This document shows positions 24,861-31,317 of a stretch of 64,000 bases of DNA, one piece after another; position 1 is the first letter of the stretch; the number at the start of each line of letters is the position of its first letter. The stretch comes from Bacilli bacterium (lineage in GTDB: Bacteria > Bacillota_I > Bacilli_A > RF39 > UBA660). The notes beneath the pieces are model-generated. The model made no database searches. It had not been told where the DNA came from and saw only the letters and a program-made list of their open reading frames with translations. The translations under genes and the position numbers were made by a program. The DNA is taken from assembly GCA_017541325.1 (NCBI GenBank), contig JAFXZI010000001.1, positions 5,624 to 69,623 on the forward strand. Reading direction: 5' to 3'.

Positions 24861-25136
24861 TTATTTATTAACTGTTTCTTTTAAAGCAGTTCCAGCTTTA
24901 AATGTAACAGCTTTACGAGCAGCGATATGAACAGTAGCTCCAGTTTGTGGGTTACGTCCTTCTCTAGCAGCTCTCTTAGATACTCCGAATGTTCCGAATC
25001 CTGCTACTGGTACTTTATCTCCTTTTTTAAGAGCTCCAGTAATAGCAGCAAATGTAGCATCGATAGCACGAGTAGCATCAGCTTTTGTTAATCCTGTAGT
25101 TTTAGCTACAGCTTCAACTAATTCAACTTTTTTCAT
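24861..25136 (-). CDS. hup: DNA-binding protein HU
   Basis: MKKVELVEAVAKTTGLTKADATRAID...GFGTFGVSKRAAREGRNPQTG. Start set at the internal ATG with RBS ggaggt. Confidence 0.9.
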   Translation of the reverse strand: MKKVELVEAVAKTTGLTKADATRAIDATFAAITGALKKGDKVPVAGFGTFGVSKRAAREGRNPQTGATVHIAARKAVTFKAGTALKETVNK

Positions 25137-25218
25137 AAATTTTACCTCCAATTTGTTAAGCACAGTATGCTTACATCTTAAAATTACCATATTTTATATA
25201 GTTTTGCAATAATTTTCC

Positions 25219-26235
25219 TTATTTTTTACGCTTTTTAGGTAGTTCTATCTTAGTATTATCTTTCATATTAATAAGATTATGTTCTAACCTTAAAATATAT
25301 AGGTATACTTCCTTCTTTTTTTCTATATAAAACCATGATTCTTTACCAGGATTTTTATCATAAAAGACAATATCTTCTTCATCTAAATGTTCTAATATAT
25401 TCTTAAATAATTCTACTTCTATTATTTCCTTTTTCTTAAATGATGGAACTTTTTTTCTTTCTACTATAAAACTTCCATATTTCTTCTTTATAGCTTTTAA
25501 TCTTCTCTTATATTCATCATAATTAGATAAGTTAAATAAAGACGCATAAGATAAAATAGTAAGAGGTATTACAGAAAAGAAACAAACAAATGATAACATA
25601 AACAAGTAAGAATTAAATTTAGTTCTTTCTTTATGAATAATACCTACTTTTTTACCTTTAGTTTCCTTGTCCTCTTTATTTTTCTCTATTTCAGATAAAG
25701 GAACTGTTATTTTATTAGTTGATTCTACATCTATATATTCAGGTTCTAATTTATCTAAAGTAATATAATTATCTGTTTCAAGATTAAAATCTATATAAAT
25801 TCTATTTTTAATACCATCTATAATACCAAATGTTTCATATAAAAATACATCAAGAGGTAATTCTACTACTGTATCAATTTTTATCATATCTTGATCAATT
25901 GTTTCTGATTCTCTCGATTCAGTAACTTTTATTTTTCTATTAATAACAGTTTTACCATCTTCTACAAGTCTTAGATTAGCTGTTACACGATATTTATAAA
26001 TTGAATCAACAACTTTATCTGTCTTTAAATAATAATAATGTCTTAAAACAGGTTTATAATCTTTATTACCTATATATTTTAAAGTTGATTCAGCTTTATA
26101 AGAAATTGGTTTTTCTTCTATAATTACATCTCTTGGAAAGCAATCTAATATAACCCATATCAAAATAATCATTACTATTGTAGATAAAGTTGCAAGTGTT
26201 ATTCTAAAACCTTTTCTTAATAATATATTATTCAT
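25219..26235 (-). CDS. Hypothetical bitopic membrane protein, last gene of the signal-peptidase/TasA-like cluster
   Basis: Two hydrophobic helices (residues about 14-31 and about 205-228); no motif. Confidence 0.4.
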   Translation of the reverse strand: MNNILLRKGFRITLATLSTIVMIILIWVILDCFPRDVIIEEKPISYKAESTLKYIGNKDYKPVLRHYYYLKTDKVVDSIYKYRVTANLRLVEDGKTVINRKIKVTESRESETIDQDMIKIDTVVELPLDVFLYETFGIIDGIKNRIYIDFNLETDNYITLDKLEPEYIDVESTNKITVPLSEIEKNKEDKETKGKKVGIIHKERTKFNSYLFMLSFVCFFSVIPLTILSYASLFNLSNYDEYKRRLKAIKKKYGSFIVERKKVPSFKKKEIIEVELFKNILEHLDEEDIVFYDKNPGKESWFYIEKKKEVYLYILRLEHNLINMKDNTKIELPKKRKK

Positions 26236-26243
26236 ATTTCCTC

Positions 26244-27368
26244 CTATTTAAATAAATCAGATATAATTATAGAAGGCCATCCTAAATATTTAACTTTACC
26301 CCTAATTATTCCTTCTATATTCTCTTCTTTTACATCCCACTCATCTACTGTGTTATTATTATCACCTTTTGTTTTTATTATATATTTATTATTAATATAA
26401 TCAATTGATACTATTCTATGAACTATATATACATTATTATTTTTATAATAAATAATATCTCCTTTTTTTAATTTATCACAGGATTTAATCTTTTCAACTA
26501 TAACAATATCTCCTTTATCAAAACTGTTTTTCATACTAGGAGATAGTATAGTAACAGGTTTATATTTAAATACTCCTATAACAAAAAGAATAAGTATAAA
26601 AACAAATATAAATAATAATATCATCGATCCATTTTTATCCTTCTTTATATCTCTTTTAGTTATTACTCTATTTTCTAACATTATTTTATTAGATATAGAT
26701 AAATATATAAAGTATGAAATAACTAAATATAATAAACATAATAATAAAGCATGTATATTTGTAATAATTGGTGAAAATATTATAATCGCTTCTAATATTC
26801 CACGATAAATATAACTAGATAAATAACCAACATTATATGCTAGATAAGATAATGTTATATTCATAATTATTACAGGTATAAATGACCTTAAAATATAATT
26901 AAATAAATCTAGATGACTAGCATTAATAAAGAAAAATAAATCTATATTAATTATAATGAAGAAAATTGTAATAAATATTACATTAAATTTAGATCTATTA
27001 TAATTTAATAATCTATATCTTGAGTATTCTTGTAAAAATACAATTGAATATAAAGATAAGAAATTAGTAATAATACCTTTTATACTTGTAGAATATCCAT
27101 TATGTGAAAAACCAAAGATTAAACCTAATAAATAATATATGAGTACATAACCAAGCATTATTATAATTACATCCTGATTCTTACTATACTTACTTCTATT
27201 CCTATTTTTAATACCAGATGTAATTATAGTAATTAATACAGTTAAAAGAAGTACAATAATTGGATTGATTATATAAATATAATCATTAGATATATTACTC
27301 TCTGGAAATATAATATTAATAATCATATAGATAAATAATATAATGTATACAGGTATTATCTTTTTCAT
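26244..27368 (-). CDS. SipW/Sec11-type (ER/archaeal-type) signal peptidase I fused to an N-terminal about 260-aa polytopic membrane domain
   Basis: C-terminal ILSPSMKNSFDKGDIVIV...IVHRIV...KTKGDNNNTVDEWDV matches the Sec11/SipW Ser-His type boxes (SxSM, IVHRV, KGDNN). Six to seven predicted TM helices precede it. Confidence 0.65.
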   Translation of the reverse strand: MKKIIPVYIILFIYMIINIIFPESNISNDYIYIINPIIVLLLTVLITIITSGIKNRNRSKYSKNQDVIIIMLGYVLIYYLLGLIFGFSHNGYSTSIKGIITNFLSLYSIVFLQEYSRYRLLNYNRSKFNVIFITIFFIIINIDLFFFINASHLDLFNYILRSFIPVIIMNITLSYLAYNVGYLSSYIYRGILEAIIIFSPIITNIHALLLCLLYLVISYFIYLSISNKIMLENRVITKRDIKKDKNGSMILLFIFVFILILFVIGVFKYKPVTILSPSMKNSFDKGDIVIVEKIKSCDKLKKGDIIYYKNNNVYIVHRIVSIDYINNKYIIKTKGDNNNTVDEWDVKEENIEGIIRGKVKYLGWPSIIISDLFK

Positions 27369-27403
27369 ATACTCATCCTCTATTTTAAATTATATCATAA
27401 CAA

Positions 27404-27428
27404 ATAAAAAAAGTACCATAAGGTACTT
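27404..27428 (-). terminator. Terminator hairpin after the TasA-like gene
   Basis: agtaccataaggtact plus T-run on the minus strand. Confidence 0.5.
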
Positions 27429-27432
27429 TATT

Positions 27433-27963
27433 TTATTTCTTTTGTTGATAATTTAATGTTCCTGTTAATGTAACTGTTTTAATATCTGTTGTATCAGGAA
27501 TTTGTGACGTCTCTGATGAACTAGCATAAGTAATTGTAACTGTAAATGTTATTGATTGACCAGATTCTAGTACATCATCAGCTTTAATTCCTTCATATTC
27601 GTAAATTACATTAGGATTATCAGTTCCATCATTAGCAGTTACTGCAGTTGTAATTGAACTTAAAACAGCATCTAATGAACCTTTATTTTCTACTGTAATT
27701 TTATATGTAACACTATCACCTACAGTATAAAATACTGGCGAAATAGTTGCTACTGTTCCTGTATTATTAACTGATCCAGCTTCTGCTGTTCCAGAACTAG
27801 CTAATTCTTCTATACTAGTAATTTTAACATCCCATGAATCGCTAATAGTAGCTGTACCATTGATATTAAGTTGTTGAGAAAGTAATGCATAAGCAGTTGA
27901 CATAAAAACAAGAGCGACTACCATAACAATAATTAATATATCTTTTTTCTTTCTTGTATCCAT
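27433..27963 (-). CDS. Secreted beta-rich T/S/V-rich protein, candidate SipW-cognate substrate (TasA/camelysin-like)
   Basis: K-rich n-region plus long hydrophobic signal (RKKKDILIIVMVVALVFMSTAYA); small Thr/Ser/Val-rich mature part; immediately upstream of the SipW-type peptidase. RBS AGGAGG before MDTRKKK. Confidence 0.4.
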   Translation of the reverse strand: MDTRKKKDILIIVMVVALVFMSTAYALLSQQLNINGTATISDSWDVKITSIEELASSGTAEAGSVNNTGTVATISPVFYTVGDSVTYKITVENKGSLDAVLSSITTAVTANDGTDNPNVIYEYEGIKADDVLESGQSITFTVTITYASSSETSQIPDTTDIKTVTLTGTLNYQQKK

Positions 27964-28082
27964 CTCATATCCTCCTATAATAAATATAATATAATGAATT
28001 TTTTTTGTCAAACAAATCAACTGTTTTTTATTTACTTTTATTCAAATAATTTCTACAATTATATTAGATGATAGGAGTCAAT

Positions 28083-28832
28083 ATGAAAAAGAAAGAAAAG
28101 GATAAAAAATCTAATAGTTTAGAATTAATTATATTTATTATATGTGTTGTTTTAATCGCAGGATTTTTCTTAATTATGATTGGAATAAAAGGTAGGTTAG
28201 GAGAAAAAAATAAAGAGACAAATTCTAAAGAAAAAGAAGAAATTGAACATGTTGATTTATCTTTTGCTCAAGATATTCTAGATAGAATTGAATATCCAAT
28301 AATACTTCATCCAGGAAATGATAGTTTTGATGCGATGGCATATTACTATTCAAACAATAAGATCCTTGCTAAAAATATGACAATGGAATCTAAAGTATTA
28401 ATATCAGTATTAAATACTGAGGGAGATTGTAGCGGAGATAAATGTTATATAAAAGAAGATGAAGTAATAAAAAAATATAACGAATTATTTGGCAGTGAAG
28501 TTGCATATAATTTTCCCAAAAGTAAATATATGACTTTAGAAGATGGATATATAGTATTAAATAAAGATTGGAAGTCATCATCAAATGGATTTGTATTTAC
28601 TAAAATAACTGATGCTACGATGACAGATAAAGAATTAAAAATATATGTAAAAGTTGCTTTCCAATATGATACTACTTTATTCTATGATTATAATTTAACT
28701 AATATTATTGAAGAATTATCTACATGTACTTCAAATGATGACTTAGATTATTATGATAATTTATATCAATATGTATATACTTTTAAAATAGAAGATGGAA
28801 ATTATACTTTCTATAGTGTAAACAAAAAATAA
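28083..28832 (+). CDS. Membrane-anchored hypothetical protein
   Basis: N-terminal TM, acidic extracytoplasmic domain; RBS taggagt. Confidence 0.4.
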   Translation: MKKKEKDKKSNSLELIIFIICVVLIAGFFLIMIGIKGRLGEKNKETNSKEKEEIEHVDLSFAQDILDRIEYPIILHPGNDSFDAMAYYYSNNKILAKNMTMESKVLISVLNTEGDCSGDKCYIKEDEVIKKYNELFGSEVAYNFPKSKYMTLEDGYIVLNKDWKSSSNGFVFTKITDATMTDKELKIYVKVAFQYDTTLFYDYNLTNIIEELSTCTSNDDLDYYDNLYQYVYTFKIEDGNYTFYSVNKK

Positions 28833-28860
28833 TCCACAAAAACTGTGGATTATTTTTTAT
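28830..28860. terminator. Bidirectional terminator
   Basis: atccacaaaaactgtggat plus ttttttat. Confidence 0.6.
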
Positions 28861-29305
28861 TACTTTCATATATTAAAGCTTCATATAATATATCGACAAT
28901 ATAATTACTATCTAAAATATTATATTTATTTTTTATTTCATCTATTACTTCATCACTATATGATAAATCTAAGTACTTAAGAACTGGTACTTTTTTATTA
29001 TTAAATTTTTCTAAATAATTAAGAGTATATATATTATCTAAATATAAAATAGTTTTCTTACCAATAAATTTTTTAAAATCTTTAACTATTTCATCTGTAC
29101 TATCTTTATAAATAAAACTATCTTTATCATATTTAATTAAATCTAATACAAATGGATTATCGATATTATTGTTACGATAATCAAATCTATCTATTAATTC
29201 TAACCCTCTTAATCTTAATGCAGATAGTTGAGCAATATCTCCATTTTTAACAGCAGTAGGTATAACTTCAACAATTATATATTCTTTTTTTAATAAATCG
29301 TTCAT
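28850..29305 (-). CDS. Hypothetical protein
   Basis: ORF in a tight minus-strand array. Confidence 0.35.
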   Translation of the reverse strand: MNDLLKKEYIIVEVIPTAVKNGDIAQLSALRLRGLELIDRFDYRNNNIDNPFVLDLIKYDKDSFIYKDSTDEIVKDFKKFIGKKTILYLDNIYTLNYLEKFNNKKVPVLKYLDLSYSDEVIDEIKNKYNILDSNYIVDILYEALIYESNKK

Positions 29306-29909: not shown

Positions 29910-30350
29910 TTAAGAATCATTCCTATTTAATAATTTTTGTATTGATTTTGTAGCTAAATCATCATATGATTTTGGCTCTATTGTACTATCTATAAAATCA
30001 GTAAAACCAGTAGGCATTAAACCATACTTAGATAATACTGAATCAATATCAAATATTCTTTGTTCAAGTACATATTCTTCATCTAGTCCACGACCAAATA
30101 TTTCATAAAACTTATCTTCTGTTTTTACTCTTAAATCATATAAATCAATTAATTGATCATATCGATCTTTTTCAATAAAACCTCTTTTATATAATCTTTC
30201 AATTTTACATACCATCATCAAGTCTGTTAATGTATAGTCTGGATAATCTGCTCTTAACGCACGAAGAACATAATCATAATCATCAAATTTACAACCAAGT
30301 TGTGTAGAATCTAATGATCTTATAGATACAAATATATTTGCTTTTTCCAT
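29910..30350 (-). CDS. Small acidic cytoplasmic protein (immunity-protein-like), first of three
   Basis: 146 aa, D/E/Y-rich, no TM. Confidence 0.4.
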   Translation of the reverse strand: MEKANIFVSIRSLDSTQLGCKFDDYDYVLRALRADYPDYTLTDLMMVCKIERLYKRGFIEKDRYDQLIDLYDLRVKTEDKFYEIFGRGLDEEYVLEQRIFDIDSVLSKYGLMPTGFTDFIDSTIEPKSYDDLATKSIQKLLNRNDS

Positions 30351-30356
30351 AACCCT

Positions 30357-30824
30357 CTACTCCTTTATTTCTTTTTGTCTATTTTCTAATTTAATATCTG
30401 CAATCGCAGATGCAACAGCATATCCTGGATCAAAAGGAAGATACTTAGCTTCTGTTAAGTCTCTTGCATCTATAAAACGACGATTAATATCATCTAAATG
30501 TTGATAAATAAAATAATGTGTTTCATAATTTATTTCATCGTTTGTATTTCCTAATAAACCATTGTAATGTCCAGCTAAAGTTACTCTAAATGCTTGTTGT
30601 GCTCTTTCCGAAGCATTTAATCCTGGTAACTCTCTTTTAAGTTTATTAGTATATACATTCATATAACCTAAATATGTAGCAATTACATCTTTAGCATCTT
30701 CTGCATACCATTTCTCTTCTAAATCCATTTCAGAATAATTAGGAAATATATCTCTAAAATAAGACAGCACTTGTTCTCTGTCAAACGGATTATCTAATTG
30801 ATCAAAACTTTTAAACTCAACCAT
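30357..30824 (-). CDS. Small acidic protein, paralogue of the adjacent 30844..31317 gene
   Basis: Shared motifs YFxxxxPxYxExxxxEKWY, RVxxxGxxxxH, and IKxxNR near the C-terminus. Confidence 0.45.
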   Translation of the reverse strand: MVEFKSFDQLDNPFDREQVLSYFRDIFPNYSEMDLEEKWYAEDAKDVIATYLGYMNVYTNKLKRELPGLNASERAQQAFRVTLAGHYNGLLGNTNDEINYETHYFIYQHLDDINRRFIDARDLTEAKYLPFDPGYAVASAIADIKLENRQKEIKE

Positions 30825-30843
30825 ATATGTACCCCTATAATTA

Positions 30844-31317
30844 TTAATTATTGTCTTCTTTTTTCATTGATCTATTATCCGCTTTTATTTCACCAACAAT
30901 AGATGTTAATTCTTCACTAGAATCAAATGGTATAGAATTATAATTACAATAGAACCATCTATCTAAATATTTTTTATTAACAGTATCTAAATTCTCTAAT
31001 ATAAAATCCCAAGATATATCTTCATTTTCTTCAACCATACTATAATAATGATCAGTTAGTAGTCCTCTATATGCTACTCTTACTATTCTTGCTTCATCTG
31101 ATATATCACCAGAAGATATAATTCTTTCAACTTGATAGTCCATTTCAGCTAGATGTTCATCTATAAAAAGTTTATCCCATTCTGTATACCATTTTTCATC
31201 AAAGGATAATTCAAAATAATCAGGATGTAATAAATCAAAATATTCTTGTACTCTTTCACGTTCATCGCCATATAAAAATATTTCAGTTCTTTCATCTAAA
31301 TCAGCCATTTCAATCAC
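30844..31317 (-). CDS. Small acidic protein, paralogue of 30357..30824
   Basis: See the paralogue; tightly packed behind ispG. Confidence 0.45.
   Translation of the reverse strand: MIEMADLDERTEIFLYGDERERVQEYFDLLHPDYFELSFDEKWYTEWDKLFIDEHLAEMDYQVERIISSGDISDEARIVRVAYRGLLTDHYYSMVEENEDISWDFILENLDTVNKKYLDRWFYCNYNSIPFDSSEELTSIVGEIKADNRSMKKEDNN

Follow-up and report, generated by a model that had tools for sequence, protein, structure and literature searches.

What does a signal peptidase gain from eight additional membrane-spanning helices, and which protein is it there to process? The question is raised by three genes in a 64,000-nucleotide stretch of DNA from a gut Bacilli bacterium (contig JAFXZI010000001.1; the whole stretch is called the window here). 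Three co-oriented open reading frames (ORFs) on the minus strand fill window positions 25219-27963 and encode, from 5' to 3', a secreted protein of 176 amino acids (aa), a 374-aa type I signal peptidase (SPase I) with a polytopic N-terminal domain (N-domain), and a 338-aa membrane protein resembling the DUF5305 family. The original prediction, made from the DNA letters, had described the locus as a dedicated fibre or matrix module, and this was essentially right: we consider it very probable that the locus is a compact extracellular fibre/matrix module of the AbpX type, within the TasA superfamily.

The description as a dedicated module is supported by the conserved gene order. Hidden Markov models (HMMs) of the window proteins were searched against all ORFs of the retrieved loci, and only loci with enough flanking sequence were counted. 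It was found that a DUF5305-like gene lies immediately 3' of the peptidase gene at 62 of 66 loci, and that a homologue of the 176-aa protein lies immediately 5' of it on the same strand at 50 of 61. The complete triad was present at 49 of 56 loci, spanning phyla and both prokaryotic domains. When species-representative genomes were scanned with an alignment of seven peptidase sequences and lineages were judged by record titles, the full-length peptidase was found in gut Bacilli, 'Tenericutes'-labelled metagenome-assembled genomes (MAGs), Clostridia, Chloroflexi, Saccharibacteria-labelled MAGs and archaea, the archaeal carriers being Thermoproteota, Bathyarchaeia and Archaeoglobaceae.

The gene set itself is already known. 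A Nature Communications paper (PMC12518558) and a bioRxiv preprint of January 2026 on Pyrodictium abyssi (10.64898/2026.01.04.697558) describe AbpX as a fibril protein of the TasA superfamily whose subunits polymerise through donor-strand complementation. According to the preprint, an SPase I termed "ten-TM" and an accessory protein of the DUF5305 family are encoded at AbpX loci (10.64898/2026.01.04.697558). The window is a further case, in a low-GC Bacilli MAG. The peptidase architecture, predicted to be atypical, is so relative to B. subtilis, but it belongs to a large cross-domain family that already appears in the preprint.

The catalytic domain was assigned without difficulty. Residues 250-366 of the peptidase match TIGR02228 (sigpep_I_arch) with 81.0 bits against a cutoff of 51.85, and PF10502 is matched as well. 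The motifs by which the domain had first been recognised as endoplasmic reticulum (ER)/archaeal-type are all present: SPSM (S276-M279), IVHRIV (H317) and KGDNN (K334-N338). S278 in SPSM, H317 in VHRI and D336 and D342 in KGDNNNTVD are invariant in 32 diverse sequences, giving a Ser-His and not a Ser-Lys pair. In a Foldseek search of the peptidase model against the PDB, the top matches were human SEC11A/C (7p2p, 7p2q; E 2e-5), and every match of the full model was confined to the catalytic domain, with none on the N-domain. We classify the domain by these matches as an SPase I of the ER/archaeal (Sec11/SipW-class, Ser-His) type. The class named in the original prediction was thus correct, but the protein is no orthologue of Bacillus SipW: it scores 56.4 bits with NF046067, for which the cutoff is 190, and has 374 aa and nine helices.

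A frameshift joining two unrelated ORFs had been named as the observation that would overturn the fusion. The reading frame runs through without interruption, and homologues keep the same architecture over their full length, more than 160 proteins of 370-400 aa aligning end to end with the window peptidase, so that a frameshift or fusion artefact was rejected. In addition, an N-domain profile searched against 1.84 billion cluster representatives matched 1,651 of them at E <= 0.001 and 1,315 at E <= 1e-10. Among the 150 matches listed, nearly all were proteins of about 380 aa matched at the N-terminus, which indicates that the N-domain is fused to a peptidase there too; the shorter ones resemble fragments. 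The fusion is, judging from these alignments, ancestral and universal within the family.

The AlphaFold2 (AF2) model of the peptidase (predicted local distance difference test, pLDDT, 87.8; predicted template modelling score, pTM, 0.81) shows eight helices in the N-domain (5-23, 27-49, 60-85, 96-123, 127-149, 152-179, 182-198 and 207-232), followed by the anchor helix 246-264. The extra transmembrane (TM) helices therefore number eight and not six or seven as first predicted. Loops 50-59, 119-127 and 233-245 are rich in K/R and loops 86-95 and 199-206 are uncharged. This charge pattern, together with nine helices, places the N-terminus inside and the C-terminus outside in the predicted topology, with the catalytic domain extracellular. 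The window peptidase lacks a C-terminal TM segment and ends in a 10-residue helix, whereas the Thermoproteota and Bathyarchaeia members (435-436 aa) have an extra C-terminal TM helix, their tenth.

G82, E114, R117, Y175 and P200 are invariant in the N-domain, and G86, P165, Y188 and P203 are conserved at >=90%. The G82-G86 and P200-P203 loops are on the outer face, and the AF2 model pairs both into a small two-stranded sheet; E114, R117, Y175 and Y188 would lie near cytoplasmic helix ends, as judged from the secondary structure of the model and the charge pattern. Residues 1-245 matched no Pfam or NCBIfam family, either in the window protein or in 31 homologues scanned individually (Pfam at E <= 1), and the N-domain profile gave only noise against PDB sequences (best E 0.5). 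An internal duplication of four plus four TM helices was not detected either (hhalign of the two halves, probability 2.8%). In a full-text literature search, the polytopic domain was mentioned in no paper beyond those on AbpX and on the haloarchaeal Tafi fibres, and these propose no function for it (10.64898/2026.01.04.697558, PMC12518558, PMC11821415, PMC12337348).

The 176-aa protein has an identical copy at NCBI, annotated as a hypothetical protein of 'MAG: Bacilli bacterium'. Its signal peptide has the K-rich n-region noted in the original prediction but, at 26 residues, it is not unusually long as had been stated. Y25, or (Y/F)25, and A26 are nearly invariant across 57-78 homologues, and from the -3/-1 rule and the alignment to mature AbpX we predict cleavage at AYA26↓L27. 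In AbpX, W2-I12 is the donor strand (10.64898/2026.01.04.697558). In the alignment W2 of mature AbpX stands opposite L28 of the window protein, which fits cleavage after (Y/F)25-A26. The subunits share the cleavage motif (G/A)(Y/F)A↓(A/L)(F/L/W), which is not present in any other window ORF. The AF2 model of the subunit (pLDDT 87), for which the alignment A6 of database proteins was used, consists of a signal helix (3-28), a low-confidence linker (29-45) presumed to contain the donor strand, and a confident beta-sandwich (46-174). The putative donor strand is unstructured in this monomer model (pLDDT 66-78); its alternation L32/I34/G36/A38 is conserved among homologues and the amphipathic pattern is kept. 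The mature subunit is acidic, with an isoelectric point (pI) of 4.05 and 12% D+E; across the family the median pI is 4.1-4.3, and the values for AbpX are about 4 and about 15%.

In a direct Pfam search the 176-aa protein matched only Ig-like families, and these weakly (DUF11, CARDB). When a profile built from 78 homologues was searched against PDB sequences, AbpX came first (9sj2_C, E 3.5e-5), followed by 9rhp, 'Archaeal bundling protein X'; TasA (8aur, 5of1) was matched far more weakly by the same profile (E 0.2-0.5). A broader HMM of the subunit family scored the AbpX fragment at 42 bits, and the AbpX fragment in turn matched subunit ORFs beside polytopic peptidases at Desulfovirgula, Chloroflexi and archaeal loci (E 1e-13 to 1e-7). 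Similarly, hhalign of the window clade (A4) with the AbpX-proximal clade (A7) gave a probability of 99.1% and E 1e-18 over 158 columns. No direct pairwise match of the window subunit to AbpX was seen, and the homology link is profile-based and transitive. PF12389 (Peptidase_M73, TasA/camelysin) did not match the window subunit at E <= 1, and 4 of 57 subunit-family members gave weak matches to it (best 6.7e-5). We assign the 176-aa protein by profile homology as an AbpX homologue of the TasA superfamily; the earlier comparison with TasA and camelysin was right about the superfamily, but the closest family is that of AbpX (9sj2).

The 338-aa protein has the layout of DUF5305 proteins, with a TM segment at 12-30, an extracytoplasmic domain, a second TM segment at 211-229 and a cytoplasmic C-terminal domain; it is therefore not bitopic, as had been predicted. 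Its positional orthologues score 34.9, 69.1 and 114.1 bits with PF17231, the orthologue from a species at 74% identity is recorded as PF17231, and a jackhmmer search seeded with the 338-aa protein connects it to 71 neighbour-gene products. By family membership and position we assign it to the SPase-associated DUF5305 proteins. DUF5305 has been described as a putative accessory subunit of SPase, sometimes fused to it and reminiscent of the eukaryotic signal peptidase complex (10.64898/2026.01.04.697558), and TafG of the Tafi system is a DUF5305 protein (PMC11821415, PMC12337348).

Comparison with known systems places the locus closest to the AbpX loci (9sj2, 9rhp), with which it shares an acidic subunit of the TasA superfamily whose donor strand, at the mature N-terminus, begins right after the cleavage site, an adjoining dedicated Sec11/SipW-type SPase I with a large polytopic domain, an adjoining DUF5305 gene, and the gene order and operon-like spacing. 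The window copy differs in having nine TM helices in the peptidase, against ten in the archaeal 435-aa members, in the Leu/Gln at donor-strand positions 2 and 4, which are aromatic and acidic in AbpX, in its single subunit gene without a minor subunit, tip or anchor gene, in its low-GC Bacilli MAG host, and, relative to the loci of the preprint, in a terminator between the subunit and peptidase genes. With the B. subtilis tapA-sipW-tasA operon it has in common a dedicated ER-type (Ser-His) SPase gene beside a TasA-superfamily subunit, a cleavage motif of small residue, aromatic residue and Ala followed by Ala/Leu and an aromatic or aliphatic residue, and the subunit core motif PGD...N.G..DA. 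Unlike that operon, it has a peptidase of 374 aa and nine TM helices (SipW has about 190 aa and two), no TapA, a different gene order and a subunit that PF12389 does not match. B. subtilis is not known to have a DUF5305 protein.

The haloarchaeal Tafi system (tafA-G) similarly combines a dedicated S26 peptidase and DUF5305 with donor-strand-exchange pilins, and when its dedicated peptidase TafD is deleted, subunits are no longer processed and fibres do not form (PMC11821415). However, the peptidase domain of TafD is N-terminal, with four TM helices and an extra C-terminal domain, Tafi substrates use the Tat pathway, and Tafi pilins form a separate superfamily cluster. The eukaryotic signal peptidase complex (SEC11A/C with SPCS1-3) provides the closest solved structure of the catalytic domain. 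The extra helices and a beta-sandwich accessory around the catalytic subunit are parallel to SPCS1/2/3, an analogy that the preprint draws for DUF5305; in the window protein, by contrast, the helices are fused in cis and have no detectable SPCS homology, and the proposed substrate range is one protein family and not a whole secretome.

Starting from the homology, architecture, predicted topology, intact catalytic residues and conserved synteny described above, we infer the course of cleavage and polymerisation and a role for the N-domain. A strong promoter would drive synthesis of the 176-aa precursor, and a leaky terminator would keep subunit transcripts above those of the processing genes. 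The precursor would be exported by the Sec route, with its signal peptide retaining it in the membrane. The nine-TM peptidase, with its Ser278/His317 domain outside, would act together with the two-pass DUF5305 protein and cleave after (G/A)-(Y/F)-A, that is at AYA26↓L27, releasing the amphipathic N-terminal strand LLSQQLNINGTATI. By homology with P. abyssi AbpX and B. subtilis TasA, the freed strand would enter the beta-sandwich of a neighbouring subunit and fibrils would form. The eight extra helices may be a built-in docking or scaffold domain for the cognate signal peptide, for DUF5305, or for both, comparable to the non-catalytic subunits of the eukaryotic complex. A further step can be proposed only tentatively, and we would rather doubt it than rely on it: the N-domain and DUF5305 might make up a self-contained prokaryotic 'signal peptidase complex' that couples intramembrane recognition and cleavage of the signal peptide to donor-strand insertion and serves as the assembly platform of a chaperone- and usher-free fibre. 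In the window clade, where the calcium-binding residues are lost, this platform and not calcium would then control polymerisation.

Several observations weigh against reading the locus as an AbpX-type fibre module. The source is an uncultured MAG, whose fibre module is a prediction from sequence. Position 2 of the predicted donor strand is Leu28 and position 4 is Gln30, whereas an aromatic position 2 and an acidic position 4 are critical for calcium-mediated donor-strand complementation in AbpX (10.64898/2026.01.04.697558); in the wider subunit family position 2 is F/L/W/I and position 4 is mostly T/Q/S/G, with few D/E. When the subunit model was compared with the PDB by Foldseek, the matches were only generic beta-sandwiches (best E 2.4e-3), with TasA and AbpX outside the top 50. 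The 338-aa protein itself scores 28.3 bits with PF17231, marginally under the cutoff of 29. Finally, the window locus has no tip or anchor gene and no gene for a large protein with a subunit-like domain, unlike many related loci.

Other explanations of the same genes were also considered. The polytopic peptidase could be a housekeeping or broad-specificity type I SPase, its closeness to a small secreted protein being functionally meaningless. The 64-kb window encodes no further S26 peptidase, and the locus neighbours core housekeeping genes (HU, CCA-adding enzyme, DnaD, Nth, PBP1A), a placement that is conserved in related genomes. The subunit-peptidase-DUF5305 order, however, is kept at 49 of 56 loci across phyla and in both prokaryotic domains, far outside the reach of such local synteny, and the distinctive cleavage motif is confined to the subunits among the window ORFs; the window is moreover a small part of the genome, and a LepB-type enzyme may lie elsewhere. 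We regard this explanation as quite unlikely. It seems highly improbable that the module is a sporulation or spore-surface system and not a vegetative biofilm matrix. TasA was originally described as the spore-associated CotN, and 'Spore coat-associated protein N' is the title of the TasA entry 5of1 in the PDB; in the nearest relatives that form spores, spoVIF and spoIVA flank the peptidase-DUF5305 pair. Adjacency to SpoIVA/SpoVIF is nevertheless restricted to 7-8 of 86 loci, all of them from close relatives, no homologue of spoIVA, spoVIF or der was found in the 64-kb window, and members of the family are found in non-sporulating groups, namely archaea and Saccharibacteria-labelled genomes.

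The function of the N-domain allows another alternative, in which it is itself an enzyme or transporter (an intramembrane protease, a sortase-like transpeptidase or a lipid/glycan carrier) and the protein is bifunctional. The AF2 model shows a large, well-folded domain, more than 1,300 clusters retain it at E <= 1e-10, its conserved polar residues E114, R117, Y175 and Y188 are in or near the membrane, and polymerisation needs explaining where neither chaperone nor usher is encoded. Known membrane enzymes of this kind have recognisable catalytic sets: EExxxR/FxxxH/HxxxN in CPBP (Abi) proteases, Cys/Arg/His in exosortases and Ser/His in rhomboids. The 32-sequence alignment contains no invariant His, Cys or Ser in the N-domain, which argues against the chemistry of all three, and no CPBP, exosortase or rhomboid model matched it; the exosortase or CPBP identity named as a possibility in the original prediction found no support and was rejected, and the domain has no family match in Pfam, NCBIfam or the PDB. 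As to polymerisation, TasA is reported to self-assemble in vitro without enzymes (Boehning et al. 2022). AbpX likewise assembles in vitro without enzymes (10.64898/2026.01.04.697558). A bifunctional protein thus appears unlikely, and the eight extra helices of the peptidase are most likely non-catalytic.

The coordinates of the features are collected in Table 1.

Table 1. Features of the three-gene locus in window coordinates.
Feature	Position	Strand	Evidence
Sigma-70-like promoter TTGACA-17-TATATT, 5' of the subunit gene	27983..28011	-	Consensus match only, 11/12 positions, best-scoring in the region
AbpX-like (TasA-superfamily) fibre/matrix subunit precursor, 176 aa (assigned)	27433..27963	-	Profile homology, AF2 model
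Signal peptide, aa 1-26: MDTRKKKD n-region, hydrophobic core, c-region T-A-Y-A	27886..27963	-	Hydropathy peak 9-27
Predicted N-terminal donor strand L27-I40, LLSQQLNINGTATI	27844..27885	-	Aligns with AbpX W2-I12
Intrinsic terminator-like hairpin and T-run between the subunit and peptidase genes	27410..27429	-	Free energy (dG) -11.2 kcal/mol, z -4.38
SPase I with polytopic N-domain, 374 aa	26244..27368	-	Single uninterrupted ORF, own Shine-Dalgarno sequence
N-terminal polytopic domain, aa 1-245, eight TM helices, unnamed family	26634..27368	-	AF2 model, profile search
Anchor helix (246-264) and Sec11/SipW-type SPase I catalytic domain, S278/H317/D336/D342	26244..26633	-	TIGR02228, Foldseek
DUF5305-family SPase accessory protein, 338 aa (assigned)	25219..26235	-	PF17231 near cutoff, orthologues, position

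The G+C content across the region is about 22-26%. The promoter falls within an alternative, TTG-extended form of the subunit ORF, which argues that the ATG at 27963 is the true start; an AGGAGG ribosome-binding site lies 8 nt ahead of this ATG. The internal terminator recognised in the original prediction was recovered, and the stability of its hairpin was equalled in 0 of 200 shuffles. Terminator-like sites in the region numbered 5 against 0.5 expected, and a similar hairpin with a T-run was found at 11 of 49 related loci. The 338-aa ORF has its own AGGAGG, and its start codon is 8 nt past the peptidase stop.

Fibres of the TasA type are coming to be seen as an ancient matrix scaffold common to bacteria and archaea, and the AbpX branch with a polytopic SPase and DUF5305 is common in low-GC gut Bacilli. 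The window locus would be a minimal three-gene version, suited to heterologous reconstitution. More than 1,600 clusters belong to the unannotated family that its membrane domain defines, and the role of this domain would reveal how an SPase becomes dedicated to a substrate and perhaps how cleavage is coupled to assembly.

Related loci have one to seven copies of the subunit gene; in the 64-kb window it is single, and no additional paralogues were found. In three gut Bacilli loci (L066 33-4848, L024 18-4887, L015 2131-4838) four to seven subunit paralogues form tandem arrays 5' of the peptidase gene, an arrangement which suggests that the fibre subunit has diversified antigenically or functionally. 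Many loci add a protein of 500-850 aa in which a subunit-like domain is followed by adhesin-type repeats (DUF285, Listeria-Bacteroides). Such large proteins are encoded 3' of DUF5305 at L028 7018-9270, L056 4600-7155, L036 6951-9314 and similar loci; the one at L056, with DUF285 and Listeria-Bacteroides repeats after the subunit-like domain, is a probable tip adhesin, and the one at L028 has weak, sub-threshold Hint/intein-like matches at residues 471-640.

The module is also carried by contigs titled Saccharibacteria (L054, L058), Muribaculaceae (L008, L011, L036, L055) and Paludibacteraceae (L063), their taxonomy being given by title only. The full triad is present on L054, L058 and L036, one Saccharibacteria contig being 203 kb long; the Bacteroidota-labelled contigs may be mis-binned low-GC Bacillota. 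Five Clostridium-like loci (L076, L078, L080, L084, L086), retrieved via the catalytic domain only, have short SipW-type peptidases of 193-217 aa, two each at L076, L078 and L086, and all five lack the polytopic domain. At L090 (3108-4113) the subunit protein is identical to that of the window and the DUF5305 gene is split into ORFs of 69 and 222 aa, possible causes being a frameshift, a pseudogene variant and an error of assembly.

In spore-forming relatives (L001-L007, e.g. L001 5576-9846), the peptidase-DUF5305 pair is found between der-spoVIF and spoIVA-HU. The window, compared over the 24861-28020 region, retains the backbone of HU, CCA-adding enzyme, DnaD and Nth without spoIVA, spoVIF and der in its 64 kb, and their absence may reflect a non-sporulating lineage or a rearrangement.

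Elsewhere on the minus strand, at 29910-31317, lie three genes in tandem whose products are small (146-157 aa), acidic and without a Pfam match. The products of 30357-30824 and 30844-31317 are paralogous (27% identity, E 1e-18) and have a common 'EEKWY' motif, and the position of the block is kept on other metagenome contigs carrying the locus. Divergent to the subunit gene, at 28068-28832 on the plus strand, lies a gene for a protein of 254 aa that has a single TM helix, at the N-terminus, and matches no family; since only the closest relatives (L087-L091) have it beside the subunit gene and the other loci lack it, it is probably not a general part of the system and was not counted as one. 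An A/T-rich hairpin with a 15-bp stem and T-runs, at 28824-28858, lies between this gene and the convergent 28850-29305 on the minus strand, and is probably the terminator for the convergent pair.

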